Notes: generated by a model from the letters alone, not told the origin. Shown: positions 8,770-35,827, numbered from the stretch's first letter. The stretch: DNA of 64,000 nt from Nitrospirota bacterium (GCA_963790025.1 CAWBMP010000002.1:64001-128000); one strand, 5' to 3'. Numbers and translations are program-made.

Positions 8770-8798
8770 CCGTTATCCATCTTCTCCGAACCTGGAGT

Positions 8799-9129
8799 TC
8801 ACTCTTTACATCCTGCTTCATCTATATTAACAATCTTGGGGGTATCATTCTTAGCCTGTAATGCATTAAAAACTACCTTTTGAGCAGATATATCAGCAGC
8901 GGCATAAATCATTGTGGTACGGATATCCGTATGATTAAGCACTTTCTGTATCGCCGCCACCGGCGCTCCTGGGGCATCCGCAAAAGGCAACACGGCGATT
9001 GTGTCATATTTTGGAGAGTCGTTGGAACCTACATATGGACTAACAGTCGGGTATAGTGTTCTCCGGGATTGGTGCACACATGAGACCAGAACCAAAACCA
9101 GTAAAAACAAACGATATAGCCTTTCGCAT
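8799..9129 (-). pseudogene. Chimeric remnant: lipoprotein N-terminus fused to tyrosine-integrase C-terminus
   Basis: LVSC lipobox and IAVLPF, then AAIQKVLNHTDIRTTMIY homologous to AIQGVLGHTDIRTTMENY of 18956-20338; ATG 9129 is out of frame. Confidence 0.75.
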
Positions 9130-9140
9130 ACTGATCCTCC

Positions 9141-10376: not shown

Positions 10377-10437
10377 CGATGTAATTCTTTCCTTCCCAGC
10401 AATGAAGAATTTCGTGATGCTTACAGATTTTCAGATG

Positions 10438-12042: not shown

Positions 12043-12112
12043 ATTCTCTCCTTCGTCTCGCCGTCAGGAAGTATCATTGTCGGCGTCCCGATGATTCCCA
12101 TCGAATGTTCTC

Positions 12113-12622
12113 CTACTTAAAAAGCCTGGCAGCTTTATCTCTAATCACCTTGCCGATATTCGGCAGTTCGCCTCTTATGATGTCTTTCACTTTGCTATCA
12201 CTACCTATGAAAACAGTCAGGGGCAAGCCAATTACGCCATAATTCTGACCTACCTTGCCGTACGGGTCACTGAGGATAACAGGGTTGTTTACCTTCAGAG
12301 CATCGAGCATCCCGCTGATCGCATCAAAATCCTCTCTATACCCTATTATCACTACCTTTACGCCTTTCTTCTCAAACTCGGGTACGAGAGAATTCAATAC
12401 AGGAAGTTCATCCTTGCAGGGCACGCAGGTGGGGGCAAAGAAATTGACGATAACACCCGTGACCGCCTTTTTCTTCTTAGCTCCGATATAATCGCTCAGA
12501 TAGAAAAAGGAACCATTGCTGTCTCTAAGCGAAAACAGCGGTGCGTCGTCGTTTATCTTGAGTGCTAATGAGGTGGATGCAGAAAGCAGCAAGAGACAGA
12601 GAAATAGAAGAATGGTTTTCAT
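12113..12622 (-). CDS. TlpA-family thiol-disulfide oxidoreductase
   Basis: APLFSL, VNFFAPTCVPCKDELP, GLP motifs. Confidence 0.85.
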   Translation of the reverse strand: MKTILLFLCLLLLSASTSLALKINDDAPLFSLRDSNGSFFYLSDYIGAKKKKAVTGVIVNFFAPTCVPCKDELPVLNSLVPEFEKKGVKVVIIGYREDFDAISGMLDALKVNNPVILSDPYGKVGQNYGVIGLPLTVFIGSDSKVKDIIRGELPNIGKVIRDKAARLFK

Positions 12623-12785
12623 AGAATAAACAATACTATATCCAACTGCACCGACGCAAGGTATTTTTCACACTTTTTTTAGGCTGGATTCACTTTTTTA
12701 GGTGGGCGACAGGACGAGGCCGACATGCTGAATCATCCTATCGGCAACCCTGAATCCGGCGGCAAGAATAGCTGAATGAATGTTT

Positions 12786-12996
12786 GTCTCCGGAGACGTG
12801 TTGGAGACAGTTTTATGTTGAGGCAGTTTCTTTATTTATCAACGAGTTGTGAAAGTGGCTATTTTGTAATTCCTTTATTTATCAAGTAGATGAAAAACGG
12901 AGGGGGTGAGATTCGAATAGAACGGAGCCGACTGCAACTGTTTGATTTCTAAAGCACTTCCACTCGGTAAAACGCCATTGGAGACAGAGTGGAGAC
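12786..12996. repeat. att junction B: copy of tRNA-Ser 3' end (12898-12917) with GGAGAC arm repeats and IHF boxes
   Basis: Core identical to 35698-35717; GGAGAC at 12792, 12803, 12980, 12991; WATCAAN4TTR matches at 12837-12849 (+) and 12935-12947 (-). Confidence 0.9.
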
Positions 12997-18955: not shown

Positions 18956-20338
18956 TTACTTTTTACGGTTGGCTTTATCTACCACCTTGGCTTCAGTATC
19001 CTTTGAACCGAGGGCGGCAAATACAACCATCTGTGCTGTGAGGTCAGTGCAGGCATAGTTTTCCATCGTGGTTCGGATGTCAGTATGCCCCAGCACTCCT
19101 TGAATCGCCTGTATCGGCACTCCGGCTGTGGCCGCCTGTGATGCCACGGAATGCCTTGTGCCGTTCTTAAGTTTTATCTGAACCTCTGCTTGTTTACACG
19201 CTTCATTCCACATATTGTTTACCGGCTTGATGGTGTATGGCCTGCCGGTCCTGGGGTTCAGGAATACATAGGCTTCGGGGAGTTTGTCTGCACACAGGTT
19301 CCTTAACATGGGTATCAATTCAGGGTTGATCATCCGAGGCTTCACCATTCTGGGCTTGGGACATTCTCTGATGATACGGTCTGAAAAGGTTCTGGCAACA
19401 GTGATAATGCCTCTTTCAAAATCAAAGTCTTTCACCTTCAGTGATCGTGCTTCTCCTGGGCGTATCCCCTGTCGTGTCAGGAATGTGAATATTGGTCTAT
19501 CAGGCTCGGGTATGAAGGAAAGTATTTTATCCTGGGTTTCCCGATCGGTCCACTTTGGTGGAGCTTTTAGGACTGAGATTCTTGGGAAGCCCTGTGGCTT
19601 TGTCTTTATAAACTCAAATTCGAGCATATCGTTAAAAAAGTTCTCCAGACAGTCCATAATGCCCTTCTGGTATTTGGGTCTATACTTACTGTTCAAGGAC
19701 TCGTAAAACTGCCGGATGTCATAAGAACGGATATTCCTGATATCCTTGTCTCTGAAATACTTCTTGTAAAAGTTCCTGATGTATGTTTTGTATGTTTTCA
19801 AGGTGCTGGGAGCCAGGTTATCCCGCTCTTTTCCATTTATCCATTCCTGTATCCGGGTTGAGAAGTAATATTTCGCCAGTTCGGCCTTCAAATAATCTTT
19901 CGGGTCGAAGGTATGTTTTTCAATTTCAGCTTCCATGCTTGAAAGGAGGTTATAGGCTCTCTGGAATGTATCGAGCGGCTGCCCCTGTTTGTCGCTAAAG
20001 AACCGTTGACGAGAGCCGTTCCAGCTAAGGTCAACATAGAAGTGTTTGGGGACGGTTTTATGTTTTGGGCAGATAAAGCCGTTCCTGCCTATAAGCATAA
20101 AAGGTCCATCGCATTTGGGGCATCTGCCCTTCGCCCTTATAGCTCCTGCCATGTCTAATCCTTCATTGACAAGTCCTAAAATGTTCTGAATAGCCTCAAG
20201 GCTATCCTCTGTCAACGCCCTTTTTTTCTTTCTCTGTACAGGACCATAGACCAGTTTATCGGGATCAGTCAAGCCTTGGATGCCGGTAGTTTGAGTCTTC
20301 TCCGGCTCATTGTTTTTCACTGTTTTTACAGACTTCAT
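18956..20338 (-). CDS. Tyrosine recombinase/integrase with N-terminal Zn-ribbon
   Basis: GIRPGEA, TRHS, LGHTDIRTTMENY catalytic motifs; CPKC...CPKH; alternative start at 20152. Confidence 0.92.
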   Translation of the reverse strand: MKSVKTVKNNEPEKTQTTGIQGLTDPDKLVYGPVQRKKKRALTEDSLEAIQNILGLVNEGLDMAGAIRAKGRCPKCDGPFMLIGRNGFICPKHKTVPKHFYVDLSWNGSRQRFFSDKQGQPLDTFQRAYNLLSSMEAEIEKHTFDPKDYLKAELAKYYFSTRIQEWINGKERDNLAPSTLKTYKTYIRNFYKKYFRDKDIRNIRSYDIRQFYESLNSKYRPKYQKGIMDCLENFFNDMLEFEFIKTKPQGFPRISVLKAPPKWTDRETQDKILSFIPEPDRPIFTFLTRQGIRPGEARSLKVKDFDFERGIITVARTFSDRIIRECPKPRMVKPRMINPELIPMLRNLCADKLPEAYVFLNPRTGRPYTIKPVNNMWNEACKQAEVQIKLKNGTRHSVASQAATAGVPIQAIQGVLGHTDIRTTMENYACTDLTAQMVVFAALGSKDTEAKVVDKANRKK

Positions 20339-20541: not shown

Positions 20542-22354
20542 CTACCACCTGATTTCACCTATTTCAGGCACCTCATCCTTGCCATAATCGACTCTATCCT
20601 TGTTCCCGGGGCCTCGCTTTTTCTTATTCACATTGACCACTTCTTTTTGTATTTCTACCTGTTGTTTTATGATGTTCTCCATGAGAAAGTCAGACTTTAA
20701 GAGAAATGATTCATTTCTGTCCCGATATGATTTATAGGCGAGTTTTGTCTTAGTAATATCGTAATTGGCTATCTTTACAAGGCATTCCAAGTCCCGGAGG
20801 CTCATAATGTCGGAGGGGAGGATAAGTCTTTCTGTTTTTCTTCTTTTGGTCTGGGAGTAGCCGTCTTTCGTGTGGGACACCCCATCGGAATAGGTTTCCT
20901 CCGTCTCCCAAAATTCCGTCTCACCTATCTTTCGGGATAGAAAATCAGCGGTAGTCGGGTCGGCAACCGAAAACAGAACGCTGTTCCCACAGGCGTTAAC
21001 AATTGCCTGGCGCAGCTGCTCGCTATAAATCTTATCCAGCTGCCCGATATCCTGAATACCCAGCCAGCAGGAGCCGCCCTTAGATCGAGAGAGCGTTAAT
21101 AGCCTCACGATAGTTGAAAGCTTCTGGAGAGTGCCCAGTTCATCCAGAAAAAAGAATATCCGCCGGTGGTAGTCATCTTTCATCGACAGGAGCCTTCTAC
21201 CCATAAGGTCGATAAAGAGGGACAGGATAGGCTTTAGTGTATCCTGCACATCAGCATAATTTGTTACGAATATCCACCCCTTCCCTCTTTCAAGCCAGTC
21301 AACTATTGAAAAGGATACCATCCAACTTCGACATATATTCAAAACTCTTCGTGAACTGCATAAGAACAGAAAACACTGACAGTGCCTGCTTGCTGGTGGG
21401 ATCCTCTATATACCTGCACCCTCTTTGCCCTCCGACAGTATGATTCATCCTTTCGGCAATATCTATGCCGGGGGCCGTGATTTCTTTCCAGATGTCGGCA
21501 TTGGATTTAGCTCCCCCCTGGTAAAGGTAGTGCAGAATACCGGCAAACACATCCCGGGCGGCATCGTTCCAAAAAGGATCTCCCATTAGAGCTTGAGGTA
21601 TCAGGCTGTGCGCGATGGCGTCGATATCCATGGCTGTGGTGATTTCATTAAAAATGCTCCAGCCCAGGCAGCGCCGGTCCAGAGGATTGAATAAGATGTC
21701 CGTATCCGGATTATAAAACCGGCTTACATAGTCCCCTTTGAAGTCATACACGATACCACGTTCACCTCGCTCTTTGAGCCTCTCCAGCACTTGGGACAGA
21801 AAAACCGTCTTACCGACGCCGGGCCGTCCAACAATAAAAGCATGTTTTGGCTCTGCCGATACCGGCAACCTGACTTCTCCAAGAGGCAGGGCTGCTTTCT
21901 CCTTATCTTTTTTAATTTGCTTCATTACCTCACGTTCAGTGATCAGGCTGGCTCCACGTTCATATTTCCGCTTCCTCTGCTTAACCGCTCGGAATTTGAA
22001 TATTCCAATAGCAAGGGGATAGAAAATATATACCACCCCGCACAGGAGGAAAATCCGCTTCATCCTATTACAATATTCATCCGCATAGGGAGCAACCACT
22101 TCACGCAATTTGCCTGCTGTCATGTGATATTCGGCACCGGATTCTCCTACAAGAGACATTTTGTAACTGTCTGGGACAAACTGAGCGAAGAGATATTTGA
22201 AGGAAATGTTTGTTTCTGTCCTGTATACAACCAGCCCCATAACCATGAATACTGATATATGAGCCATCACGAGTAACAACATCGTGTATAGGTGCATCTT
22301 CGCATTTAGCCTGACTGCATTCCACCAGAGTCCGAAGCCCTTGTATGATTCCAT
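20542..22354 (-). pseudogene. Type IV coupling protein (TrwB/TraD family), frameshifted near 21316
   Basis: Two TM segments, Walker A GRPGVGKT, YDFKGD, NPLDRRC, FW..AAR, LDELGTL, SRSKGG; span 1813 nt = 3n+1. Confidence 0.88.
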
Positions 22355-22623: not shown

Positions 22624-24057
22624 ATGTCAACATTTTCGAAATTTTTTGGCATAAATAAAACCCAGGCTGAACTGGATTTTGTAGATGTGCCACTTAACAA
22701 GGATACGGCTCTCTTTATTGACCCATACGCCATATCGCAGAGAAGGGACTCTTGGAGCCAGTCATGTCATGAACTAATTAAGTACTTTTTTCAGTTGATC
22801 ATTGAAAGTATTCGGGCTGGCAACTATGATAAGGCTAAGGAATTATTGCTTTACCTAAAAGAACCGAATGAAACACGTCTTGGGTTCTCCAAGAATCGAC
22901 CACAAGGGGCCGGGATAGGTCACTTTCAAGCCGAGCAGCTTTACCGAGCAATCAGCGAGTCCACCGCTGTAAAAACTGGTTTTCTCTCTTCTCTAGAGGA
23001 ATGTGAGTTGATGATTGATGGCATTAGTAGAGATAAGATTTCAGACCTTACAACAAACATTATACGCAAAAAAATCGAAGAGTATACTATTGAACAATGT
23101 AAGCTCTATGATATATCGCTCCAAGAAGTTGCTCTTCCCCCGTATTTTTCGATAGAGGAGAACACTTGGGTAAGCGATTATTACCACCTCCCAGTCCATA
23201 AAAACAGGCCCATCCTTCTGGTTCCAAAGTTTGTTGCAAGATATTCACTTGATTATAATTCGGGTGATTATTATAACAATTACGTTATCAACTTTCTTCA
23301 AGCAGAAAACTTATCAGCTGGGAGCAGCCTTGTTAGAACTCTTAGGAATGGCAAAAGGGTCATTTACAGAAAAGATTTAAAAGCAAGATACCCTTTTTCC
23401 AAAAAATTTCTCTTTGAGTTTTCAAAGAGTAATCCAACAATTCTTGCAAACTATAGGGCAGCCTTGCGTGCCTTTGAAAAAAAACACCATGAGATAAACG
23501 AGGGATCAGAAGATGAGCAATTATTAGCTGATTCTCTGTCAATAGCTTTGCATAATATTCCTCCAGGTTCTGAATATGCTTCTTCTTATCACAATCTTAT
23601 GCTTGGTATTCTTGAATTTATATTTTATCCATATCTTATTTATCCGAGAAAAGAGAATGAAATTCACCAAGGACGGAGGCGTATAGATATTGTGATGGAG
23701 AATGGTGCTAAGTCTGGAATATTCAGAAGATTGCATGAGATACGTAAGATTCACTGCCCCTTTATATCAATTGAATGCAAGAATTATAAAACGGATGTAA
23801 CAAATCCAGAAATTGACCAATTGTCTGGTCGGTTTTCGCGTGATAGAGGAATCGTCGGTGTTCTATGCTGTCGAAGTTTTGAAGATGATAATCTTTTCAT
23901 AAAGCGGTGTGTTGATACTTTTAAGGATGGAAGAGGTCTCATAATTCATCTTGATGATAATAGGATAGAAGAGCTTCTCAGTTTAACGAGAAATAATAAG
24001 CGGAATCAGATGGATTCAAAAGTCACTGGCTACTTTGATGCAGTGCACTTTTCATAG
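22624..24057 (+). CDS. Putative restriction-endonuclease-fold defence protein
   Basis: C-terminal RRIDIV...ISIECKNY...DQLSGRF (PD-(D/E)xK); AT-rich. Confidence 0.6.
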   Translation: MSTFSKFFGINKTQAELDFVDVPLNKDTALFIDPYAISQRRDSWSQSCHELIKYFFQLIIESIRAGNYDKAKELLLYLKEPNETRLGFSKNRPQGAGIGHFQAEQLYRAISESTAVKTGFLSSLEECELMIDGISRDKISDLTTNIIRKKIEEYTIEQCKLYDISLQEVALPPYFSIEENTWVSDYYHLPVHKNRPILLVPKFVARYSLDYNSGDYYNNYVINFLQAENLSAGSSLVRTLRNGKRVIYRKDLKARYPFSKKFLFEFSKSNPTILANYRAALRAFEKKHHEINEGSEDEQLLADSLSIALHNIPPGSEYASSYHNLMLGILEFIFYPYLIYPRKENEIHQGRRRIDIVMENGAKSGIFRRLHEIRKIHCPFISIECKNYKTDVTNPEIDQLSGRFSRDRGIVGVLCCRSFEDDNLFIKRCVDTFKDGRGLIIHLDDNRIEELLSLTRNNKRNQMDSKVTGYFDAVHFS

Positions 24058-24076
24058 CCTTGAATGCTAAAGCATC

Positions 24077-25108
24077 ATGAGACAATTTACAGTCATAATA
24101 GAACAAATTAATCAGAGTAAGAACCTTATTCTTGAGAATGATACTGCCTCCCTCCGTATGGCGCTGATTTTACTTGATAATGCCGCCGAAATTCTCATGT
24201 ACAGAAAGGTGTTAAGTGAATTCGGCGATAACGAAATATGCCGAAAGATTCGCGAGCAGGCAAAGTCAGCACTGCCACCAGACGTTTTCGACAAATTTTT
24301 ATCTGAACACGCAGTACCGGAAATTCTTGAGGAAAAGAAAAAGAGAAAGATTATAAAGTATTTTGATGAAAAAATAACTTTTTTATGTGATGCCTGCGGT
24401 CATATCCCCGGCCCCGTGGGGGCAGTATTGTCTTCACTTCACAGGTACAGGAATGAAACATATCATCGTGACATAATACGAAACGAGATACTGCGTCCCA
24501 TTGCCATTCTTTATTTTGAATTGGTTTGTGAGCTTCTGACTTATCTACAACAAAGTGCCGTTAGTTACCATAGCGAAGACGATTGGTCGCATTTTTTCAC
24601 GAAGTTTGGCTTCGGCGAGAGGCAATATAAAATGAGGATGCTAAGTGATGAAGACATTGAAACAATCTTGAATAGATTCCGGGCGGAATTGTCAATCAAC
24701 TTAAATGAGCTAAGGGAGACTCTCCAAGAATATGCAATTAACAGACTCGACGAAACTTTAGACAGGCTCAACTTTATATCAGACACGATGGGTATCAAAT
24801 CATGCGATACCACTTTAAAACTCATGCAGTTCACGCAAACAAGTGAGTCTCTAAAATATAATAATAGAAACCTACTCCTCCAAAGCAAGAAATTTAATGA
24901 ATACGCAGCCCCGATTACAGCGGTCGTTTTCTTAAATTGGAAGACAAATGCACAGCATTTTGTTAGTCTCCAGGATAAACTTGACCTATTTATTGCCTTC
25001 AAGAACTTAGAAGATCAGTTTGAACCTATTGAACATAGAATATATGATGTCGCAGATAAATTAGATCAGGAAATTCAGTTTGCTATAGATTTGGCGCGAG
25101 GAAAATAG
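24077..25108 (+). CDS. HEPN-domain protein
   Basis: RMALILLDNAAE and RNETYH (Rx4H). Confidence 0.65.
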   Translation: MRQFTVIIEQINQSKNLILENDTASLRMALILLDNAAEILMYRKVLSEFGDNEICRKIREQAKSALPPDVFDKFLSEHAVPEILEEKKKRKIIKYFDEKITFLCDACGHIPGPVGAVLSSLHRYRNETYHRDIIRNEILRPIAILYFELVCELLTYLQQSAVSYHSEDDWSHFFTKFGFGERQYKMRMLSDEDIETILNRFRAELSINLNELRETLQEYAINRLDETLDRLNFISDTMGIKSCDTTLKLMQFTQTSESLKYNNRNLLLQSKKFNEYAAPITAVVFLNWKTNAQHFVSLQDKLDLFIAFKNLEDQFEPIEHRIYDVADKLDQEIQFAIDLARGK

Positions 25109-25158
25109 AGTTCTGAAATATGAAAATGCTAAAGAGATGTTAGAAGCTTGTACCGTCA

Positions 25159-27612
25159 TCACGTTTTCGACTGCAAATTCCAGAAAATATTCCCGCAGGG
25201 ACACTTTACATTCGCTGGAATCGTGCCTGCCATGTTAAGTCCAATTACTCCAGGGCACTCAGAACATCTGAATATCCCTTCCATATCCTGAAATGCTTCC
25301 ACTATCGGTAGAAAATCCTCTTTCGAGAAATCTCCCCATTTAGAATAATGGACATTTTCATTTATTCCCCATTGCTCCATCTGTGTACGCTGAATGATCT
25401 CAGCGGCCTGCGATTCCATTTCAGTATACTTTTCGACTTCTTCACGCTTGTTCCAGCTGTTTGCAGCATTCTTAGCTGATTTAAGGTGCTCCTTAAACGC
25501 CTTCTTCGCTCCATTAAGAAAATCCCCTAGCTCCCATCTGCCGTCACTCTTGTAGCAGACTTCCGCCTTCAGCGAGTCGCACACATTCTCATAGAAGAAT
25601 TCTAAGTGCTCTCTGAGTTGGTGAGCTGCTGACGCTATCTCGTTATTTTCCAATTTTCTTCGGATACCTTCCCACACATCACTATGCCCTTCTTGTCTTG
25701 GTCCGCTCTCTACCGTCCATGCCCTGAATTCAACCATGTTACGGCTGCGCACCACGCCATCAGTACTAAGCTGCCTTGCCCACGTCCTGTTGTGTGTTGT
25801 TATTATGAACTGGCTATCGGGAAAATGATGCTTTAGGAGTTTGCATATGTTTCTTCGATGGTTGCTGTCGATAGACATAACCACATCGTCAAGCATAATA
25901 AGTTTGACCTTATCCTCAGATATTTTTTTATTTAACGCTAAGTAAAGGCAGAGACCCATGCTGTCCTGATGCCCCTCGCTGTGAAGCGCTCGCGGGTGAT
26001 GTATGCCCCTACCATAGAAGGCCACCTTGAATTCAAGTTGGGCGCCTTCCGGTTTAAGTTCTGCATAAAAGTCTTTTTCGTCTTCACCATGCAAAAACTT
26101 GTAAAAGACGGTGAAATCCTGATTTACTGAATCATACAGATTTTCCAGAACCTTATCCTTGGTTTCGGTATAAGTCTTTGACAAAACAGTGGCGCGCTCG
26201 GCGAATTTAGTCGAACTCTCGTATTTTCCCTTTTCGCCAAAATACCTTGTGAGAATAGGCTTGAGTGCTGTCAACGCATCCCACGCTTCTTGTTCCGGCG
26301 TAAGCTTCACGACCCCTTCCGTAATCTTCTCAAGTTCTTTACAGTATGACTCGCAATTTTCACCAGCAATAAACATAGTGATGTCATCCTTATTAGGTTC
26401 TTCTAGCGGATAATCCTCCAATGCTTGCCTTAATGCATCAGCCCATGCAGTCAGCCTCTTTTTCCAGGCCTCCAAAGTATTCTTAATATTTTCCTGCCCG
26501 AGTTTTTCAGAAGCATCCACTATGGTACTTAAATAGCCAATGAGCTTCGTGATTTCGGTATCATTCTGAGTTGTGAGTTTGCGAATCTTTTCCTCTATTT
26601 CCTCTGCCTCTTTTGCCGTAAGAAGTCTCTGCCGAAGGAATATCTCAAGTTTACCAGGTTCCCATTTTGTCAGGCAAAGCGGACAAGAGCCTGTTTCATC
26701 AATCAAAGATATCCCCAAGTCAAGAAGCCTCTTGCCTGCAAGATCTCTCTTAAGCTTTTCATTTTCCTTCAATGTCCTGATTGTCTCTCTGAGATTTTTT
26801 TCTGTCTCATAAACTTGAGAGCCCATTTCGCGAATCAATTTATCTAAGGCGAACAAAGTCCTTTTAAGCGACTCCGGATCCACCTGGGTCTTTTCGTCCT
26901 TCGTTAACGGGCTTATGTACTCCTTCAGCTTATGTGATTCTAGGGAGTCAAGCGGATCTCCTTTGAGAATTGCTCGACAGGCATTTACCTTTTTCAATAC
27001 ACCTTCTTCCGAGAATCCTCCCAGTCCCAATGTCGTTTTTATGCTCGCCATAGAGGTCTCGTAGTTGGCCTTATCAGTCTGTACAGCCCTGTCCGCTTCT
27101 CTCTTTATTGTCACAAATACTTTTCGTATTTCCTCCAACCTGTCCAGATTGAGGATAGCCTGAATTTCTTCGGCTCTTTTGCCGGACTCTGCCGCTATGT
27201 ATTTCAATATTTCAGACCGAGATAGGACATGCTGGCCTTTCTCAGCAATCTCAAGGGTTTCTCCAAATATTTCCTGCGCTATATTTGGACAAATCAATTC
27301 TTTCGGCTTAGACATCTCTCTTCTCAATGGAATAGGCTCGTCAATTCCAGCTATCTCGATTTTTGCAGTTACCACTGCTGCCTCAGGCTCTGCGTCTATG
27401 TGAGGGCCGTGGTCTTTCAGGCTTATCCCTCTCGTTCCCCTTCCTGTCAGCCTGGATATATCTCCAGTGAAAAGGAATTCTATTGCATCTATGACAGCGC
27501 TTTTGCCGGTGCCGTTTGGCCCGTAAATCACGAGATTTTCGCCATTCGGCTTAAGGGAAATCCTATTTCTTATCCCTCTGACGTTTTCTATTTCAAACTC
27601 AAGAATTTTCAT
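25159..27612 (-). CDS. Rad50/RloC-like ABC ATPase with coiled coil and zinc hook
   Basis: GPNGTGKS, CPLC hook, HSEGH signature, LDDVVMSID, TTHN; C-terminal helical domain plus CxxC..CxC; ATG at 27612. Confidence 0.85.
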   Translation of the reverse strand: MKILEFEIENVRGIRNRISLKPNGENLVIYGPNGTGKSAVIDAIEFLFTGDISRLTGRGTRGISLKDHGPHIDAEPEAAVVTAKIEIAGIDEPIPLRREMSKPKELICPNIAQEIFGETLEIAEKGQHVLSRSEILKYIAAESGKRAEEIQAILNLDRLEEIRKVFVTIKREADRAVQTDKANYETSMASIKTTLGLGGFSEEGVLKKVNACRAILKGDPLDSLESHKLKEYISPLTKDEKTQVDPESLKRTLFALDKLIREMGSQVYETEKNLRETIRTLKENEKLKRDLAGKRLLDLGISLIDETGSCPLCLTKWEPGKLEIFLRQRLLTAKEAEEIEEKIRKLTTQNDTEITKLIGYLSTIVDASEKLGQENIKNTLEAWKKRLTAWADALRQALEDYPLEEPNKDDITMFIAGENCESYCKELEKITEGVVKLTPEQEAWDALTALKPILTRYFGEKGKYESSTKFAERATVLSKTYTETKDKVLENLYDSVNQDFTVFYKFLHGEDEKDFYAELKPEGAQLEFKVAFYGRGIHHPRALHSEGHQDSMGLCLYLALNKKISEDKVKLIMLDDVVMSIDSNHRRNICKLLKHHFPDSQFIITTHNRTWARQLSTDGVVRSRNMVEFRAWTVESGPRQEGHSDVWEGIRRKLENNEIASAAHQLREHLEFFYENVCDSLKAEVCYKSDGRWELGDFLNGAKKAFKEHLKSAKNAANSWNKREEVEKYTEMESQAAEIIQRTQMEQWGINENVHYSKWGDFSKEDFLPIVEAFQDMEGIFRCSECPGVIGLNMAGTIPANVKCPCGNIFWNLQSKT

Positions 27613-27778
27613 CGTTCTCTTCAATTTTAAGCAGCTTCGCTATATCATCTTTCCTTAAATCCCGGGAATGGAGGATCTTTTTAAGGGATTCGAGGTGCCC
27701 TTCATTTAGAAAGCCGGTTACTTCTAACTCTTCTATGAACTTATTTATTACTTGCTTGGATACAGATGTTAAAGCCAT
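27599..27778 (-). CDS. 59-aa hypothetical protein overlapping the ATPase start (not in ORF track)
   Basis: MALTSVSKQVINKFIEELE...KLLKIEENDENS; GGAG RBS; stop lies just inside the ATPase gene. Confidence 0.65.
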   Translation of the reverse strand: MALTSVSKQVINKFIEELEVTGFLNEGHLESLKKILHSRDLRKDDIAKLLKIEENDENS

Positions 27779-27879
27779 CTTTTCTTCTCCAAAGAGATGT
27801 TCAGAACGCCTGAAATATTAATTGCTTCAGTATATCTCGTAAGTCTGCTGATACTCAAGGGGAAATCAAATATCATCTA

Positions 27880-28224
27880 CTACTCGGACTGTTCTTTCAC
27901 CTTCTTATCCACTGTCTCAAGGTATTCAGAAAATTCCTGCGCTGATGCCCCCTGCAGTCTCCTGAACATCTCCTCAATAGCCACTCCGTTCCTGACGGCG
28001 TAATACAGATTTTTCCTAAGCCCCCTATCCAGCGCCATATCCCTTAACTCCTGAACTCCCTCCATTATCTGCCGTAGCCCGTGAATCACTTCTCTTTCCG
28101 GCACCCCTTGCCTGATGAGTTCCCTTACCATATCCGCAATTGTCATTCTCCTGTTGATGGCAATTTCATCCAAGCGCTCGTATTGATCCTCCGTCAGCCT
28201 TATACTTACCACTTTCGTTCGCAT
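27880..28224 (-). CDS. TrwA/MobC-like ribbon-helix-helix relaxosome accessory protein
   Basis: MRTKVVSIRLTEDQYERL...IADMVRELI; AGGAGG RBS; next to the oriT-like site. Confidence 0.7.
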   Translation of the reverse strand: MRTKVVSIRLTEDQYERLDEIAINRRMTIADMVRELIRQGVPEREVIHGLRQIMEGVQELRDMALDRGLRKNLYYAVRNGVAIEEMFRRLQGASAQEFSEYLETVDKKVKEQSE

Positions 28225-28244
28225 GCTCTGCCTCCTTTTTATGG

Positions 28245-28404
28245 GGCATGAATGCGAGGGCATGGCTGATTTTTGTAATCGGACGCAATCGCCGAAAGGA
28301 TGAATCATCTTTTCGGCGCGGCTGCCGGTGGCGATTACAGAAGGTGGCAGGCGGGCAGTGCCGGGAGTGGCAAGGGAAGTTGCGTTGGGTGTGAATGGTA
28401 CCAG
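28245..28404 (+). promoter_or_regulatory. Putative oriT (MOB-F-type nic at 28392/28393), copy 2
   Basis: TTGCGTTGGGTGT^GA; orientation relative to the RHH and coupling genes matches F/R388. Confidence 0.65.
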
Positions 28405-28768
28405 AGGTCTCAACCGTGGTGAACAATACCCAACGCTCTGATTGTATTTTGTCGGCTATACCGACACATTTCGGGAACAGGTCCAACATTGCCAGAACCT
28501 AAAAATTATGTGAATTGAAAAATCCAATAAATACAGAGCTGTTCTGTTTTACATATATTGATATTATCAGACGTTCGCCTTTGACGACTCCCGTGCCGGG
28601 ACACAAAATCCTGTCCTGAACCGGCATAGTAGGATTATTGTCACTTTGCCACGTTTGAACAAGCAGGAAAGTTCTATAATTCCAGCTTTACTTCTTCATC
28701 TGGCCTCCATGTATCGGCAGCCCCTTAAAGGAAACGCCCGGTTCGCATTCACCCATTACAAAGGAGAA

Positions 28769-29167
28769 ATGACGATGAAGAAAAAGATAAGGTTGACATT
28801 CAATGATAGTAACGACTTCGATGCTGTAATTATGAGCGCTCTATTACCGGGTAGTCTGCGCAGTACTACTATCAAGAGGCTAATGTATGATGCCATTATT
28901 GGCCCCCGGCGAGCCCCCGAAAGGACTCCAGCGAGGCTCCAAAGAGATACTGAAAAGCCCCATTATGAGACATCAGAGCGGCCCCGCCGAGACACTGAAC
29001 AGCCCCAGGGGAAACACACTTCTCTAGATACCAAGAAGAGCACTCTGTCGAGCGTCATGGGGGATTTCCTTGAAGATGAGCCCCTAACACCTCAAGCCGG
29101 GCAACGATTTACAAGCGAAGAGGACAGGAGAATCAATGAGAAATTGAAAAGACTGTCGATAATTTGA
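28769..29167 (+). CDS. Small protein divergent from oriT (StbA-like position)
   Basis: AAGGAG RBS before ATG 28769; N-terminal KKIRLTF beta-strand plus helices; low-complexity linker. Confidence 0.55.
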   Translation: MTMKKKIRLTFNDSNDFDAVIMSALLPGSLRSTTIKRLMYDAIIGPRRAPERTPARLQRDTEKPHYETSERPRRDTEQPQGKHTSLDTKKSTLSSVMGDFLEDEPLTPQAGQRFTSEEDRRINEKLKRLSII

Positions 29168-29238
29168 AATGTTGACCCACACACAGAAGACCTCGCAAAC
29201 GTCGGGCATGATCAGCAACCTATGAGGCACAAGCCGCG

Positions 29239-30027
29239 CTATGAGTGACGATACCATTTGAGAAGCACCTCCGGCTGTAAATATTCTTTATCAGGAGAAG
29301 GGGTGAGAGTATGCGCCCAAACCATGTCCAGACCAATATTGCTTTCAGAAAACAGATTCGGTGGTGGTGGAATATCAGCACCATGCAAATAATCAAGCAG
29401 TAATAGCGGAATAACAGATTGCTCAGATTTCAGAAAACATAATAATATTCCAGTTGAAGCACCTTGCAAAGAACCCGAGAGAACGGCCTTCTTGAATTTA
29501 TCAGTATACTTTTTGATTGCCCGATTAGCTAAGGCGGAAATAATTGCTTCTCTTGATCGATGTATATGATGCAATTCCACATTAACAATATCGAGCCAGA
29601 ATTCTTTCTCTTTGATAATCAAAACAACATCAGCATCTTTTGAGTTAGTGCCGGTCTCAAAGGGCATTTCCATTTTAACTTGCTGGCCACCATTAATAAA
29701 GTGAATAGCCCAAGCTGCCTCGGCAACAGTATCCAAGAATATACTCGGTGTTTTTCTAAATAGGTTTTGGCTGACCAGCTTTTGCCATACCTTTATCTGC
29801 GCCAGTTTATTACACTGAAGTCGTCTAATAAGTTCATCTATAGTCGCCAAGTAATGATAATAGTCTACACGCCAGCGGGGATAATCGTCGCGCGCCATTT
29901 GGCAGCAATCGCAAAGACGCAATAACTTGTCTGTTTGAGGACAAGCGGATAGGGCAAGTTGTTCTAATGTAGCCCCTTGACTTTGAGCCAAAGATGAAAG
30001 AGCAGGATATTGAAAGTCAATGTTCAT
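29239..30027 (-). CDS. Hypothetical protein, possibly degenerate PD-(D/E)xK fold
   Basis: TVAE...KDADVVL...FWLDIV. Confidence 0.5.
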   Translation of the reverse strand: MNIDFQYPALSSLAQSQGATLEQLALSACPQTDKLLRLCDCCQMARDDYPRWRVDYYHYLATIDELIRRLQCNKLAQIKVWQKLVSQNLFRKTPSIFLDTVAEAAWAIHFINGGQQVKMEMPFETGTNSKDADVVLIIKEKEFWLDIVNVELHHIHRSREAIISALANRAIKKYTDKFKKAVLSGSLQGASTGILLCFLKSEQSVIPLLLLDYLHGADIPPPPNLFSESNIGLDMVWAHTLTPSPDKEYLQPEVLLKWYRHS

Positions 30028-30101
30028 ATACGGCTATCACCTGAAGCAAAGGAACGAGTTACGAGCTAAGAGGACAAGAGAATCCTTGACCTTGCCTCTT
30101 A

Positions 30102-30857
30102 TTATTTTTCTGCTGGACCAAAATCCTTATCCATTCTGGCCAATGCTAGAAATGCTTGTGAAATAGATTCTATTTCTTTTTCGGCCAGCTTCTTCCCTTT
30201 CTTATTCTCAACAATGTAATCGTAGAGCTGCTCATCCTTGACGCAATGAATATAGCCGGTCGTACCCCATCTTGCCTCCACGTAAGCTGAAGGAAAGGCA
30301 AAAACGCCTTGGACATAGGGGTCCAGAGGAGAGAGAACTTTTATTTTTTCCTTGATACTCATTATTCTACGTGTGAGATTTTTGATTTCTGTTTTCTGAG
30401 TCGGATTTCCATTTAACAAAAGCTCCCCATTGCCGTCAGCGGCTACAACTCCCTTCCAATTCTTTGCATCAATGACGTAAGCCCCGGTGGGGCCGATAAC
30501 CACATGGTCGATGTTTCCGAAAGGAGTCGTCAGATCATGGATAACCCTGTAGTCGTCCGGAAACCCTTCGAGGACGTAGCCGATAACTGCCTCGCCAACT
30601 GCCCCTTTCCGGAAGTTGATCCTCTCGATTTCCAATGCCTTAAGTTTCTTGTTCGTCCATCTCATAATCAGTGGAATAGCTATAACGAAAATGACTATTA
30701 GGATGAGCGCAAATGAGACTTTTCGACCGCCAAATAAACAACCGTCGATAAACGCTAAGCCCCAGAAAACTAAGAAGATTACAAGAAACTGCCTTTGAAA
30801 CTTTTTTATAGACTGTTCCGTTACATACCGCGCTGTCTCACCTAACACTTTCGCCAC
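30102..30857 (-). CDS. NERD nuclease-related protein with two N-terminal TM helices
   Basis: GAVGE...HDL...NIDHVVIGPTGAYVIDAKNWKG. Confidence 0.85.
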   Translation of the reverse strand: MAKVLGETARYVTEQSIKKFQRQFLVIFLVFWGLAFIDGCLFGGRKVSFALILIVIFVIAIPLIMRWTNKKLKALEIERINFRKGAVGEAVIGYVLEGFPDDYRVIHDLTTPFGNIDHVVIGPTGAYVIDAKNWKGVVAADGNGELLLNGNPTQKTEIKNLTRRIMSIKEKIKVLSPLDPYVQGVFAFPSAYVEARWGTTGYIHCVKDEQLYDYIVENKKGKKLAEKEIESISQAFLALARMDKDFGPAEK

Positions 30858-31148: not shown

Positions 31149-31838
31149 CTAGCAATATTCCTTGATCTTCTTCTTACAGTAAGAGACTATTACACAGTCG
31201 TCACACTCTGGGGAGAGCGCAGTGCATATCTTGCGACCGTGTGAAACCATATTCACGTGTAAAGGGAAGCGCAAAGCTGGAGGAATAAGGTCCTGTAAAT
31301 AGTCCATGGCCATGTCGGAAACACGACTAGCATTGCAGCGATTGCCGTTCCACCCTAATCTGCCGGCAATTCTCCAGCAGTGGGAGTCAACCGGGAAAAC
31401 TTGTCGGTCAAGCGAATAAAGCATCACACAGCGGGCAACTTTACTCCCGACGCCTGGGAGACTAGTGAGAAATCTTTCGCATTCCTCGTCTGACATTTTT
31501 TTGAGCGGGGCTAATGTAGGCCTGCCGAAATTCTTTATCAGACATTGAACAATCGCCTTAGCAGAACCCGCTTTCCGATTTTGCAAGCCGCCCCAGGAGA
31601 CGACTTTGCTTAGCTCTTGAACTGAAGTGGTAGCAAGGAGTTCATATCTTGGAAAGTTTTGCTTCAGGGATTTGAAGGCTTTGAAGTAAACCTTCTCGCT
31701 CCTCTTTATGCTACAAAGAATAAAGAACAGCTCATCCAAAGGATTTCGTTTATTGCGGTGTGAAAAATTATTATACTGACTGCTGAGACGCCGGGTAATT
31801 TCGTAAATATTTGTAGCTAATGCTTTTTTCGTCTTCAC
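31149..31838 (-). CDS. Endonuclease III (Nth)-family glycosylase with 4Fe-4S cluster
   Basis: LPGVGSKVA, FPVDSH, C-x6-C-x2-C-x5-C. Confidence 0.85.
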   Translation of the reverse strand: MKTKKALATNIYEITRRLSSQYNNFSHRNKRNPLDELFFILCSIKRSEKVYFKAFKSLKQNFPRYELLATTSVQELSKVVSWGGLQNRKAGSAKAIVQCLIKNFGRPTLAPLKKMSDEECERFLTSLPGVGSKVARCVMLYSLDRQVFPVDSHCWRIAGRLGWNGNRCNASRVSDMAMDYLQDLIPPALRFPLHVNMVSHGRKICTALSPECDDCVIVSYCKKKIKEYC

Positions 31839-31938
31839 TCAGTTCTATTCGCTATCCATTTTAACTAGCACTGTGCTTGCGTAGGCACGGATGTGGTGAA
31901 ATGCGGCCCTGAAAAGGCAGTCTTTCCATCATATTCAA

Positions 31939-32865
31939 TTAAATCGAGGTTAGGCTGTTGTGATAGAGTGGATGACGTACCTCTTGAATTGTTGAGAGAA
32001 AGAGTTCCATCTCGTCATCTAACATCTTAGAATTGGTCGTTATATCTTTAAATAGAAGATAAGCCATTTTAGTAACAATAAAACACAGCACAACAGTAAA
32101 GTCGTGATGTTCATAATGTGACTCATCAAAATAGTCATCTAAATTAGTACTTAAAGAACCGAACTTATCTTTAATGATAAATTCAAAGAGATCATCGCAT
32201 AACCATCTATTGTTGAAATAGTGAATAGAATTTCTTTGCTTGGCAAAATCTTTCACATCCATCTTTTTGATGATCTTGATGTATTCTCCCGGCCAAATGT
32301 CAATTCTCAAGACCGAAATTATTCTTATGAATATTTTCCATATTGAAGTATGATCTAGAACAACGTTGGTTTTCCACACAACTATATCAGTATCAGATAT
32401 GTTTCCTTTATTCCTATGTTTTTTCTCCAGCGCTTCTGGTTCAGGCCACAAATCTACTATGACCGACTTATTATTGTATTCCCCAATGTTAACGCCTAAC
32501 AAATTAAGAAGGCTCTTGGCGGCATAAAAACATGCTTGATATGCAGATGATAGGGACCATGTTAAAATCCCCATCTTTATGTGTAATTCAGCCGCACTTA
32601 AAACATGTGATGCCTTATGCAGTAGAAAAACAGCTTCCCATAAAGCATACATCCTTATAGCTGCCATATCTTTTCTGATATAAGGAGCTCCACTGACAAT
32701 TAGTTCCTTAGTGAGCGTTTTGAAATCTTCAACTTCTGAGAGCAGTATTGTCGGAGGCAATCCAGCAGGTTTTATTAGAGGAATATGAGGAATCCATTTA
32801 TCTCGCAGTGTTTCCCACCTTCTGATTCTTAAGCCATTGATAATCCCGTCAAGCAAATCGGGCAT
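31939..32865 (-). CDS. Putative HEPN-domain protein
   Basis: WSLSSAYQACFYAAKSLL..LG helix and RNSIHY motif. Confidence 0.55.
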   Translation of the reverse strand: MPDLLDGIINGLRIRRWETLRDKWIPHIPLIKPAGLPPTILLSEVEDFKTLTKELIVSGAPYIRKDMAAIRMYALWEAVFLLHKASHVLSAAELHIKMGILTWSLSSAYQACFYAAKSLLNLLGVNIGEYNNKSVIVDLWPEPEALEKKHRNKGNISDTDIVVWKTNVVLDHTSIWKIFIRIISVLRIDIWPGEYIKIIKKMDVKDFAKQRNSIHYFNNRWLCDDLFEFIIKDKFGSLSTNLDDYFDESHYEHHDFTVVLCFIVTKMAYLLFKDITTNSKMLDDEMELFLSTIQEVRHPLYHNSLTSI

Positions 32866-32867
32866 GC

Positions 32868-33893
32868 TTATAGTACCAAGCCACCCTTTGTTTTTGAACT
32901 GTCAAATTGTGACAGAAGCGTGCTTCGCAAATCGTCTCCAGCTTGTAATTCCGCAGCTGAGCCTGTGCCATATTGTTTCCAATCATCAAATGGAAAGTTT
33001 TCTATTTTTTTCAAAACCTTTGAAATATCTCCTATCGTAAACGTCTTGTGCTCCGTCATTGTAAGGTCAAATACGGTCGGCAATGCGTTAATAAGTGCGC
33101 CAAACCCCAATGTTTGGAAAAAAAGTGGTTCAGGTTCTTCAAAATATTGCGGAAAAATATTCCTTAACGCTTTAAAGTAATTATCGATTATATTTATTTG
33201 CTGATTGGTGTTATATATCGCTAACTTACCTTGTTTTTTGGAAAGAAGTGGCGATATAACACGCACAAAATTGGTTAATGAGAGTTCTCCTTTTTTCGGT
33301 GCTGTCACTACGACTATTCGTCCATAGAAAGTAGATTCTTCATTTTTTCTCAAAGCCGTAGAGATATCGGCTGCTTTCTCTTTAACCATTTCCGATTCTG
33401 ACTTGGATTTTGGTAATTTCTTCAACAAGTCATAATACAATGACGTTGGTACACCTTTCGCCTCTTTATTAATTGTTACAAATTGTTCAATTTGCTTTTC
33501 CAGCGACAATCCGATAAAAGCTACAACAATAAGTTCGATGTCCAAAGATGATTCATGTGATCCTGCCAACCGATGTTGCCCATCTATAACCCATCCCGCA
33601 TCCTTTTCTTTAGGAATAATAAGTTTACTTCTATCGCTAGAAATCTTTGTATTATTCCCAAAAGCTACTAACACACTGTTAGGAATTGGATTTTTTCTCT
33701 CTATGTAACGTTTAATTGAAGTAACTCTGGTCAGGGACAATGCGCGCTGATAACCCTTATCCTTGTCTGGGTCTCTTTTATCAATAGATACAATACTCCA
33801 GAGTGTTTTTGCTTTCATAGTAAAACATGCCAGCTCATTAGTCCCTTGATTCGCCCACAGAACGGGAACTTTAATAGTACCTCTTGTGGCCAT
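32868..33893 (-). CDS. DGQHR-domain (DndB-like) protein
   Basis: GYQRAL, IPNSV, VIDGQHRL, QFVTIN. Confidence 0.88.
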   Translation of the reverse strand: MATRGTIKVPVLWANQGTNELACFTMKAKTLWSIVSIDKRDPDKDKGYQRALSLTRVTSIKRYIERKNPIPNSVLVAFGNNTKISSDRSKLIIPKEKDAGWVIDGQHRLAGSHESSLDIELIVVAFIGLSLEKQIEQFVTINKEAKGVPTSLYYDLLKKLPKSKSESEMVKEKAADISTALRKNEESTFYGRIVVVTAPKKGELSLTNFVRVISPLLSKKQGKLAIYNTNQQINIIDNYFKALRNIFPQYFEEPEPLFFQTLGFGALINALPTVFDLTMTEHKTFTIGDISKVLKKIENFPFDDWKQYGTGSAAELQAGDDLRSTLLSQFDSSKTKGGLVL

Positions 33894-33937
33894 AGTTATT
33901 TCTCCTTACTCGTATTCTTCCTCATTGTTCCTGCCTT

Positions 33938-34549
33938 TTATGGAGCTATTCCGACTATGACTAATGGCACTGCAGGAACCCCACGCCCTTGCCTTACGAC
34001 GTTGTAAAATTCGCCTTCATAGTAGGCAACGCCCGAACTCATATGAGACTGAAGGGATTTCATGGGGAGGATTTCAATGCCCACGTCAATTTGGTCGCCG
34101 ACATAAAACGCAAGATGCTTTACAAAGAGATCATAAGCGACGAAAGAGTATTTGCCGAATTGAACTTCTATTGCAACTCTGTCTTTGACGAAATCAGTTT
34201 GATTGTAACTGAATATTGGTTTCTCCCCTGCTGACTCGATTTCCTTCTTTTGTTCGTCAGGAGTCATCGCAAGTGTTTTCCGAATGAGCTTCTCACTTCG
34301 TGTAACCCAGTAACTAACACGGCTCTCATGCCACTCTTTTGCGCGGAGAAATTTATTGAACGCCGCGTTCATGTCGATAGGACTGTAAAGCAGTTTGCCC
34401 TTCATCGTCTTTTCTTTGGACACCTTGCTTTTGCATTTCTCAGCATCTACCGACTCAATCACAGATTGAATTTCTTGCCAAAGCTGCGGCTTATGCACTA
34501 AAAGGAATTCAAGACCGTTCAGATGTGAATATGTTTCAATTATTTTCAT
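33938..34549 (-). CDS. BglII/BstYI-family type II restriction endonuclease
   Basis: NQTDFVKDRVAIEVQFGKY (D..ExQ); MSSGVAYYE. Confidence 0.85.
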   Translation of the reverse strand: MKIIETYSHLNGLEFLLVHKPQLWQEIQSVIESVDAEKCKSKVSKEKTMKGKLLYSPIDMNAAFNKFLRAKEWHESRVSYWVTRSEKLIRKTLAMTPDEQKKEIESAGEKPIFSYNQTDFVKDRVAIEVQFGKYSFVAYDLFVKHLAFYVGDQIDVGIEILPMKSLQSHMSSGVAYYEGEFYNVVRQGRGVPAVPLVIVGIAP

Positions 34550-35499
34550 CGGGCGACGAATTTCCGTTTCTTTTCTTTAATTAAACGAGGCTGATGAGCA
34601 TTATCCTCTGTTACCACCCACGGGGCAACGGTCAGACTATTGCCTGCCTCTACAGGATCGTATACCGGACGATACATGGGACGCGTCTTTAATGTCCCTG
34701 ATAGTTCTTGTTCAATCCTCTGCTTTGCAAGTTTGACGTATCGTGGAACAACCTCCGAGCCGATTCCCCGGCGGTTATGGCGGATAGCCGCAATTATTGA
34801 CGTCCCGGTTCCGAGAAAAGGATCAAAGACCCAGTCACCTTCATTACTCATTGAAAGCACAAGCCGCTCGATAAGCTCAACCGGAAACTGACAGGGGTGA
34901 TCCGTTTTTTCGACATGATTGCTTTTGACATTAGGAATAACCCAAAAATCTCCCGGATTCTTTCCCAGAGGATTGCAGGAATATTTACCGGCGTTCGGGC
35001 CCTTAAAATATTTTTTTCCGGGATACTTCTGTGGCACTCTGACAGGATCAAGGTTGAAGACATAATCATCCGATTTTGTGAACCATACAATAGTTTCATA
35101 ACGCCCTGAAAAACGACGACTGCAATGAAGACCATGTTCGAAATGCCAAATTATCCGGTTTCTCATTTTTAGACCAAGCTCATTAAAAATGGGATATAGA
35201 ACCGTATCAAGAGGAATTATGCTTCCATCATCAACATAGTTGCCGACCTGCCAACAAATGCTTCCATTAGGAGAAAGTCGCCGAACACATTCGCGTATGA
35301 CCGCAGCCTGCTGCTCAATGTATGCTTCCAGCTTAAGCTTTTTCTCGTATTCCTTGCCGATGTTATAGGGGGGTGAGGTAACTATAAGTTGCAACGTTCC
35401 CTCTGGTATTGTTGATAAGAGTCTCAAACAGTCACCGTGATAGACGACTATCTGTTCGGATTTACGGAATTCTTCTGAAATAGACCGCTTATCAAACAT
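34546..35499 (-). CDS. Beta-class N4-C/N6-A DNA methyltransferase
   Basis: TSPPY precedes HPCQFP and DPFLGTGT; ATGA overlap with the REase gene. Confidence 0.92.
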   Translation of the reverse strand: MFDKRSISEEFRKSEQIVVYHGDCLRLLSTIPEGTLQLIVTSPPYNIGKEYEKKLKLEAYIEQQAAVIRECVRRLSPNGSICWQVGNYVDDGSIIPLDTVLYPIFNELGLKMRNRIIWHFEHGLHCSRRFSGRYETIVWFTKSDDYVFNLDPVRVPQKYPGKKYFKGPNAGKYSCNPLGKNPGDFWVIPNVKSNHVEKTDHPCQFPVELIERLVLSMSNEGDWVFDPFLGTGTSIIAAIRHNRRGIGSEVVPRYVKLAKQRIEQELSGTLKTRPMYRPVYDPVEAGNSLTVAPWVVTEDNAHQPRLIKEKKRKFVAR

Positions 35500-35697
35500 G
35501 TTACCTATATTACCTGCAATGGGGGATTTTCCGTCAAGTTGTCCTTCTTCAAGAAGAAGCCAGAACCAGATAATAAAAAAATCCGAAAATGTTATTCATC
35601 TGATCGAAAATTTCTAACAATCCCTGGAGACGGCGTGGAGACGTGTTCTTTGAGCTATTCTCAGGAATATTGTCTTATTTATCAAAGAGATATAAAA

Positions 35698-35785
35698 CGG
35701 AGGGGGTGAGATTCGAACTCACGGTAGGATATAATCCTACAACAATTTTCAAGACTGTCGCCTTCAACCGCTCGGCCACCCCTCC
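35698..35785 (-). tRNA. tRNA-Ser(TGA), island integration site
   Basis: Cloverleaf GGAGGGG...CCCCTCCG, anticodon loop CTTGAAA, long variable arm; CCA not encoded. Confidence 0.95.
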
Positions 35786-35827
35786 AGGGGAAGCAACTAT
35801 TATACTATCAAATTTCAGTTGGAAATT

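Follow-up and report, generated by a model that had tools for sequence, protein, structure and literature searches.

The window analysed here, a stretch of 64,000 nt from a Nitrospirota bacterium (GCA_963790025.1 CAWBMP010000002.1:64001-128000; the genome is 98.8% complete), carries five minus-strand open reading frames (ORFs) at 31149..35499 that encode, in this order, a DNA methylase, a BstYI-type restriction endonuclease (REase), a protein with the DGQHR motif, a HEPN protein and an Nth-like glycosylase (Table 1). We find that the conserved unit is formed by the methylase, DGQHR and HEPN genes and not by all five, and that this three-gene cassette is real and widespread; the REase is optional, as most relatives of the cassette lack one, and the Nth gene is a passenger. 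With a probability of roughly 0.4, we read the trio as a restriction-like anti-phage cassette whose DGQHR-HEPN pair would take the place of the REase. An earlier sequence-only reading of the window had proposed a five-gene defence system, in which DGQHR and HEPN formed an abortive sensor-effector module that backed up the restriction-modification (R-M) pair and Nth might attack or process modified bases. That reading picked the right pair and attached the wrong partners to it; its description of the gene order, of the 4-nt ATGA overlap between methylase stop and REase start and of the 2-nt gap between DGQHR stop and HEPN start was accurate, and all five ORFs are intact.

Relatives were collected by means of a degenerate pattern that describes the two paired HEPN helices and yielded 50 genome and 84 metagenome stretches, with 34 and 60 true members, respectively (40 chance matches were dropped). 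Related patterns cover 111-121 of the 161 HEPN members that were used for residue conservation, so the sample of loci leans to consensus-like proteins. In the resulting 94 loci the DGQHR-HEPN combination spans at least eight phyla. The DGQHR gene lies directly upstream of the HEPN gene in 86/86 loci that offer 250 bp or more of sequence for it (77/77 that are distinct at 90% identity), which leaves no instance of a HEPN-MNT arrangement among them, and the translationally coupled order DGQHR to HEPN is kept in all loci. The linkage of the two genes also holds in the reverse direction: when a DGQHR alignment was searched against viral contigs (48 loci), the 12 loci, in prophages, whose DGQHR protein was 44-51% identical (10 distinct) all had the composition methylase-DGQHR-HEPN without a REase. 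The other 36 reverse-search loci carry distant DGQHR proteins, and none of the 15 inspected had a HEPN of the window's type.

A methylase of the window's family is adjacent in 36 of the 45 distinct loci for which both flanks are available. It may lie upstream, downstream or in convergent orientation, and position alone therefore does not explain its link to the pair. The remaining nine loci comprise three with another N6/N4 methylase (L025, L074 and L111), one in which the adjacent methylase fragments are broken and an intact copy is found 6 kb away (L113), one with a family methylase 6.5 kb upstream in the same operon (L002), and four without a methylase, of which L004, L005 and L043 have a truncated or split gene and L024 is intact. 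A BstYI/BglII-type REase is absent, within the available flanking DNA, from 32 of the 36 fully flanked methylase-bearing loci; it stands between methylase and DGQHR in six of the 94 loci (four of the 36). Small BglII-like genes are present in L002 and L113. The absence of the REase from so many loci implies that the partner of the pair is the methylase, and the pair looks more like a nuclease stand-in than like a guard of the nuclease. A role as backup of an R-M system, as the sequence-only reading had it, is accordingly rejected as the general function. The partner methylases are nearly all enzymes of hexamers with a GATC core, mostly of the BstYI/BglII family and in two loci (L068 and L111) of the BamHI type, the one in L068 adjoining a Pfam BamHI nuclease gene. 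That the methylases have been swapped and yet nearly all recognise GATC-core sites fits a sequence-specific read-out. Seen from the side of the methylase the trio is a minority arrangement: DGQHR-HEPN occurs at 5/49 viral methylase loci and at 0/19 methylase loci in the window's phylum, 16 of which have a REase. A second phylum was represented by 400 genomes, in which, the centre genome aside, all DGQHR proteins found were distant ones.

The evolutionary signal of the three genes points in the same direction. Over 59 loci the pairwise distances of DGQHR and HEPN correlated with a Mantel rho of 0.54, against 0.16 and 0.19 for the methylase versus the two members of the pair, the significance of these values being inflated by the relatedness of the loci. 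In a methylase tree of 123 rows (a quick IQ-TREE run with SH-aLRT support only, from which L025, L068, L074, L111, duplicates and short rows were left out) one clade of 38 rows (SH-aLRT 100) occurs only together with DGQHR-HEPN, and the seven loci that combine the pair with a REase are scattered among the methylases of plain R-M systems. The label "REase-less" needs six changes on this tree (at least three forced) and the label "pair with REase" seven (at least five forced); mapped on the DGQHR tree, the class of the methylase shifts 22 times. The methylase of the window is 88% identical to that of a plain R-M system in a genome of the same family, unlike its DGQHR and HEPN proteins, which are nearest to those of REase-less trios. 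The GC content at third codon positions is lower for DGQHR (0.33) and HEPN (0.35) than for the methylase (0.42), REase (0.46) and Nth (0.50) genes, which suggests separate origins. We infer that DGQHR-HEPN is a stable core that repeatedly settled beside a GATC-core methylase, after which the REase was often lost; the window would then represent a stage at which both the pair and the REase are present.

The DGQHR protein, a single-copy gene product in this genome, is a core part of the cassette and is predicted to act as a switch that responds to nucleoside triphosphate (NTP). It scores above the cut-off for TIGR03187 and Pfam DndB and below the equivalog cut-offs of DpdB (122 vs 300) and DGQHR_dnd_1 (90 vs 450), and its sole PADLOC match is the DpdB model. 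The N-domain has a ParB/Srx fold (PadC, 6ryk: Z 8.1, root-mean-square deviation (rmsd) 3.0, 99 aligned residues; mean predicted confidence (pLDDT) of the model 88.6) and its GYQR and DGQHR motifs are intact and invariant in 60/60 relatives; a Foldseek search with the model gave no match at E ≤ 0.001. The conserved helical C-domain, at about residues 163-331, has no clear structural match. That dnd and dpd genes are missing had been noted before, and indeed neither DndC (TIGR03183) nor DpdA (NF041059) was found in the genome (DndD and DndE were not searched).

The HEPN protein, the predicted effector and likewise a core part, is a member of a family that comprises 456 clusters when grouped at 50% identity. 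The fold that the sequence-only reading had assigned to it stands: PF05168, above its cut-off, is the sole Pfam match at E ≤ 0.1, and the top six structural matches of the model (pLDDT 87) include 2hsb, 4nqf, 1wol and 3o10, all titled HEPN, with AF0298 (2hsb) at a Z of 9.1, modest for a helical bundle (rmsd 3.0, 126 aligned residues). Foldseek gave no match at E ≤ 0.001, and in the ESM Atlas only unnamed clusters were recovered, the nearest named one, HEPN_AbiV at 0.79, being a lead only. The protein is further extended at both termini and has a beta insert. By comparison of 161 members (the best 150 of the matches listed plus the earlier ones), the peptide RNSIHY does not represent a canonical R-x4-6-H RNase motif: the conserved motif is R211-N-x-x-x-Y216, with R211 at 99%, N212 at 93%, H215 (R+4) at 76% and Y216 (R+5) at 99%. 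The near-invariant residues further include Y109, W176, W221 and D225, and position 172 is His in 82%, Gln in 14% and Asn in 4% of the proteins. AF0298-type HEPN domains lack the motif His and may use an alternative one (PMC3710099). H172 would be the equivalent of that alternative His between helices 2 and 3, and the protein may plausibly act as an RNase. Five longer relatives (430-441 aa; P0009, P0028, P0036, P0065 and P0088) carry an extra N-terminal helical domain at residues ~8-107 that matches Pfam PCRF, the N-domain of release factors, in three of the five (best E 3.7e-5, at the cut-off), a fusion that may hint at targeting of the ribosome. HEPN relatives were found neither by tblastn in plasmids and phages, nor in 400 genomes of the window's phylum, nor, in a weak search, among proteins of 689-2000 aa. 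No PADLOC model (2023) matches the HEPN gene and the system is therefore missed by standard tools.

The methylase is a beta-class amino-methyltransferase with the motifs TSPPY and DPFLGTGT, and its likely product, judged by family, is N4-methylcytosine at RGATCY: M.BamHI and M.BglII are described as N4-cytosine methylases and M.BstYI as "possibly" one (PMC2890505). Between the methylases of the dedicated clade and those of R-M systems 78 conserved columns are shared and only 3 differ. The REase is a full-length homologue of BstYI and lies next to its cognate methylase.

Taken together, these features would allow the following mechanism. The methylase would mark the RGATCY-type sites of the host, and a DGQHR dimer would bind DNA and act as an NTP-gated switch, like DpdB (described as a dimeric DNA-stimulated ATPase; PMC10164549), SspE and ParB. 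Unmethylated sites, presented by incoming or fast-replicating phage DNA or arising when the methylase is blocked, would flip the switch, upon which the partner HEPN dimer would be released or activated and would halt translation, probably by cutting RNA through a non-canonical Arg211/His172/Tyr216 site, with abortive infection or dormancy as the outcome. In this genome the pair sits directly after a complete BstYI-type R-M pair, whose methylase it would use, so that it would add a second layer, cell arrest, to the cutting of DNA. A more general form, that the pair is a portable ParB-type NTP-clamp reader of GATC-core sites or of a methyl-cytosine nucleotide set free from such sites, which triggers a non-canonical Arg/Tyr HEPN at the ribosome and plugs into any methylase of the right site, is tentative and in our judgement somewhat short of even odds. 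Of the sensor-effector idea put forward earlier, the tight pair, the HEPN fold and the tie to DNA methylation stand; the R-M backup and the Nth component do not.

A number of observations weigh against this mechanism. The observed/expected ratio (O/E) of RGATCY, which was 0.36-0.48 in R-M genes as the positive control, is 1.01 in the methylase genes of REase-less loci, compared to 0.48 in those of R-M loci; this speaks against DNA cutting in cis, and the view of RGATCY as trigger gains no positive support from it. The HEPN genes are depleted in the site (O/E 0.53 and 0.42, z about -3 in two groups), as are the flanks (O/E 0.68), and the mixed result fits an effector that acts in trans without identifying its trigger. 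The methylase of L025 and L074 is of a different kind, with no site assigned. L024 has an intact pair and no methylase nearby or in its single-cell assembly (of unknown completeness), and together with L005, L017 and L072 it forms a supported DGQHR subclade (99) without an adjacent methylase in the available DNA, although the genome of L005 holds a methylase elsewhere; for this subclade a switch for which unmethylated DNA is lethal needs another mark or a distant methylase. Distant pairs of DGQHR and HEPN-like genes (L147, L148, L200-L202) also come without a methylase of the window's type; alignment of their partners to the HEPN profile with hhalign gave a probability of 92.3 for L148 and a non-significant 0.8 for the Providencia gene (L201). 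Furthermore, the C-domain of DGQHR yielded no recognisable DNA-binding motif, the HEPN protein lacks the canonical R-x4-6-H motif and, with H215 at 76% and H172 at 82%, may be non-catalytic, and the modified base may be m6A (N6-methyladenine), by analogy with an Acinetobacter system of the BglII/BstYI family that makes m6A at RGATCY (PMC10287943).

Two of these groups of loci have a context of their own. In L024 (7371-14047) the genes upstream of the pair encode a ParB protein, the N-terminus of which is PD-Lambda-5_A-like, another DndB-like protein, a radical-SAM protein and an HSP90-type ATPase, a neighbourhood that possibly belongs to a different DNA mark. The pairs of L147, L148, L200, L201 and L202, found on Leptospira, Providencia and Ralstonia plasmids and in two genomes, show an R-x3-N-Y motif when inspected by eye.

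Other functions have to be weighed against the same data. The pair might fire on the mark itself when it appears in a danger form, as in Metis or SspE, most simply on m4dCMP or m4dCTP from host DNA degraded by a phage, with the methylated nucleotide bound in the ParB-type pocket or by the HEPN dimer. Such a sensor would have no need of a REase, and a pair without a methylase would do no harm, as suits L024, L017 and the two-gene pairs of distant kin; it would also agree with the 1,558 RGATCY sites in the genome and the lack of cassette-wide site avoidance, with the binding of CTP, ATP or GTP by ParB folds (10.1101/2025.10.10.680097) and with the prediction, in the Metis preprint, of cytosine-methyl versions that have their own methylase (10.1101/2025.11.05.686725). 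We nevertheless consider it unlikely, since a nucleotide sensor should accept any methylase that makes the same base, yet the swaps are nearly all confined to GATC-core enzymes, which speaks for the reading of a site on DNA and not of a free nucleotide; besides, no MisB-like phosphatase or recurrent clean-up gene adjoins the cassette, and the one tested DndB-like protein binds ATP/GTP and not CTP (10.1101/2025.10.10.680097). If the pair were instead a guard in the manner of PrrC, it would bind the methylase or R-M complex and be released by an anti-restriction attack of the phage, the methylase of REase-less loci serving as bait. The constant proximity of a methylase, the seven independent-looking associations with complete R-M pairs and, as precedents, PrrC and the HEPN domains seen at R-M loci (PMC3710099, PMC3632139) would suit a guard, but the common absence of the REase does not, and neither does a methylase that does not co-descend with the pair and has been swapped even for the BamHI type, which is hard to reconcile with a specific protein interface and suggests that the methyl mark, and not the methylase protein, provides the coupling. 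As a PrrC/RloC-type ABC-ATPase domain is missing as well, we regard this role as quite unlikely.

We rate equally low a toxin-antitoxin or addiction function, with DGQHR as a DndB-like repressor or antitoxin of a HEPN toxin and methylation tuning expression or stabilising a mobile element. The order of the genes and their translational coupling in all loci, the report of DndB as an ATP-dependent repressor (PMC10853773, 10.1101/2025.10.10.680097), the RGATCY depletion specific to HEPN genes and the occurrence of the cassette on islands and prophages are all in line with it. An antitoxin would, however, hardly be expected to be conserved over its full length and better than its toxin (mean identity 48% for DGQHR and 27% for HEPN), and the dedicated methylase clade and the repeated re-acquisition of methylases from one site family would be left unexplained. 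Very unlikely, finally, is a function outside defence, with DGQHR as an accessory ATPase of the methylase and HEPN as an inactive binding subunit, or else a five-gene system in which Nth processes modified bases. DpdB powers DNA modification by DpdA (PMC10164549) and some HEPN domains with a non-canonical motif, as here, may be non-catalytic (PMC3710099), yet the same methylases work without DGQHR, as the REase-bearing loci of the window's phylum demonstrate; Nth follows HEPN in no relative, and the cassette resides in defence islands and prophages.

The combination of ParB, HEPN and methylase is in itself already known, and it is the family made up of a DGQHR protein, an R-x4-Y HEPN and a BstYI-family methylase that is undescribed: no description of the trio was found in the full-text literature, a scope that leaves aside subscription papers and supplements such as those of Anantharaman 2013, Vassallo 2022 and the defence-prediction screens. 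The closest tested analogue is PD-lambda-5, an anti-phage system characterised as "compacted RM+Abi" (Vassallo et al. 2022, PMC9519451). It joins a DNA methylase to a protein for which the PADLOC models show an N-terminal match to a ParB domain, and a review lists the ParB-containing effector among HEPN systems (10.1101/2024.10.26.620412), so that ParB, HEPN and methylase without a REase recur here in split form (32/36 loci and 12/12 prophage loci). PD-lambda-5 differs in having two genes and not three, its B models match methylases of the D12/Dam class whereas that of the window is beta-class, and no PD-Lambda-5_A model matches the DGQHR or HEPN protein of the window. The operon of MAE_28990 HEPN, ParB and DNA methylase, predicted in 2013 (PMC3710099, Table 1), follows the same three-gene logic; its HEPN family keeps R-x4-6-H, whereas the window's resembles AF0298/HEPN-T and has a DGQHR protein as ParB partner. 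In the literature searched we met no mechanism for either system.

Other known systems resemble the locus in part. A BstYI R-M system accounts for the full-length REase and the R-M-type methylase, but covers only two of the five genes, and DGQHR-HEPN is mostly found without the REase. DndB, DpdB and SspE share the ParB-fold N-domain, the DGQHR motif, a helical C-domain and the tie to a DNA-modifying enzyme; in contrast, the window locus lacks an HNH nuclease domain (no GmrSD_N or HNH match at E ≤ 0.1 in the five proteins) and the partners are a methylase and a separate HEPN. With Metis the cassette would share methylase-dependent abortive defence without a REase, which is predicted here (Osterman et al. 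2025, 10.1101/2025.11.05.686725), but the five proteins have no Pfam domain of the MisA, MisB or MisC type and there is no such recurrent neighbour. PrrC and RloC similarly place a HEPN effector and an NTPase switch near R-M genes, PrrC being tied to type I R-M; they are single ABC-ATPase-HEPN proteins with canonical motifs, whereas here the switch has a ParB fold and a gene of its own.

If the proposed reading is true, many methylases that are considered "orphan" or R-M remnants would supply the marks for an immune system that has so far escaped notice, type II methylation marks would gate cell arrest besides DNA cutting, and ordinary type II methylases could be converted to abortive-infection systems by a reader pair. 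The cassette also gives a handle on the role of DGQHR/DndB-like ParB proteins in DNA-modification systems, and bears on the question whether R-x4-Y HEPN domains, which have been seen in solved structures of functionally unassigned proteins, work as active effectors.

The Nth gene had been considered a component of the system, and this is contradicted by its distribution. It is found downstream of HEPN in none of the 58 distinct loci that extend for 900 bp or more on that side; in one locus (L112) an nth-type gene lies upstream of the methylase. Relatives of the island Nth (42-67% identity) occur in 12 of 400 genomes of the phylum, never near DGQHR or HEPN, and eight of the 12 have other methylases no more than about 5 kb away, together with TdeIII, BsoBI, MTaX1-HNH or helicase genes. 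The five-gene system is therefore rejected, and Nth appears as a generic satellite of R-M loci that trails unrelated operons. In L285, from the same genus, a 67% identical Nth is flanked by a pair of MTaX1-HNH and a different methylase, which it follows, and by a gene homologous to the integrase of the window (see below), which comes after it, from which it follows that the gene travels with such elements and not with DGQHR-HEPN. The other Nth-family genes of the genome are more distant from the island Nth; a viral search for relatives returned none, and the plasmid matches were distant haloarchaeal nth genes. The island Nth might have a role in the repair of damaged methyl-cytosines.

Further gene arrangements were encountered among the loci. 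A recurring operon of a family methylase, a small BglII-like nuclease, a ~430-aa protein, an SNF2 helicase and a NOV_C nuclease is present in L002, L058, L113 and L286; DGQHR-HEPN follows it in two loci and adjoins it in a third, and an Nth relative follows it in L286. Long DGQHR proteins of 577-608 aa pair with methylases in L226 (4877-6658), L251 (4897-6657), L025 (3329-5062) and L299 (4916-6742, mislabelled as an efflux pump by a resistance predictor), in three of these with a methylase of the window's family, and constitute a second REase-less module. Beside Dam/D12-type methylases lie distant DGQHR proteins with a length near 370 aa or near 800 aa, one of the latter having an RNIAAH motif in its C-terminal part (L164, 5230-8438; L165, 5287-8524; L149; L150).

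Table 1. Positions in the window of the five genes and of the ends of the island in which they lie.
Feature	Position	Strand	Evidence
MTase (methylase), BstYI/BglII family, 317 aa	34546..35499	-	N6_N4_Mtase E 3e-53
REase, BstYI-type type II, 203 aa	33938..34549	-	Endonuc-BglII E 3e-35; PDB 1sdo E 2.8e-95
DGQHR protein, 341 aa	32868..33893	-	TIGR03187 145.8 bits vs cut-off 58.85
HEPN protein, AF0298/HEPN-T type, 308 aa	31939..32865	-	Pfam HEPN E 1.3e-6, above cut-off
Nth-like glycosylase, 229 aa, GTG start	31149..31838	-	HhH-GPD + 4Fe-4S motif
tRNA-Ser(TGA), integration site of island	35697..35786	-	
24-bp att-like repeat, tRNA 3' end, right island boundary	35694..35717		
Same 24-bp repeat, left island boundary	12894..12917		

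The DGQHR gene, preceded by an AAGGAG ribosome site, starts 44 nt past the end of the REase gene, and Nth lies 100 nt past HEPN. A promoter and terminator scan stayed at chance level, and two DNA read runs gave only short contigs that bridged no gene junction usefully. The island at whose right end the five genes are found (22.8 kb, 12894-35717) has a GC content of 42%, compared with a genome value of 47%. The att-like repeat occurs once more at 7685-7708, where this third copy delimits a second, tandem element of 5.2 kb (7685-12917). From motifs recognised by eye, the island presumably encodes a tyrosine integrase (18956-20338) and what we take to be a coupling-protein-like gene split over two ORFs (21299-22354 and 20542-21342). 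Its further cargo, at 22624-30857, comprises a 477-aa PDC-M36A-like protein (22624-24057), an 821-aa SMC/LmuB-like ATPase (25159-27624), a CopG-type RHH (ribbon-helix-helix) gene, a NERD nuclease (30102-30857) and ORFs of 343, 262 and 173 aa without an assigned family.

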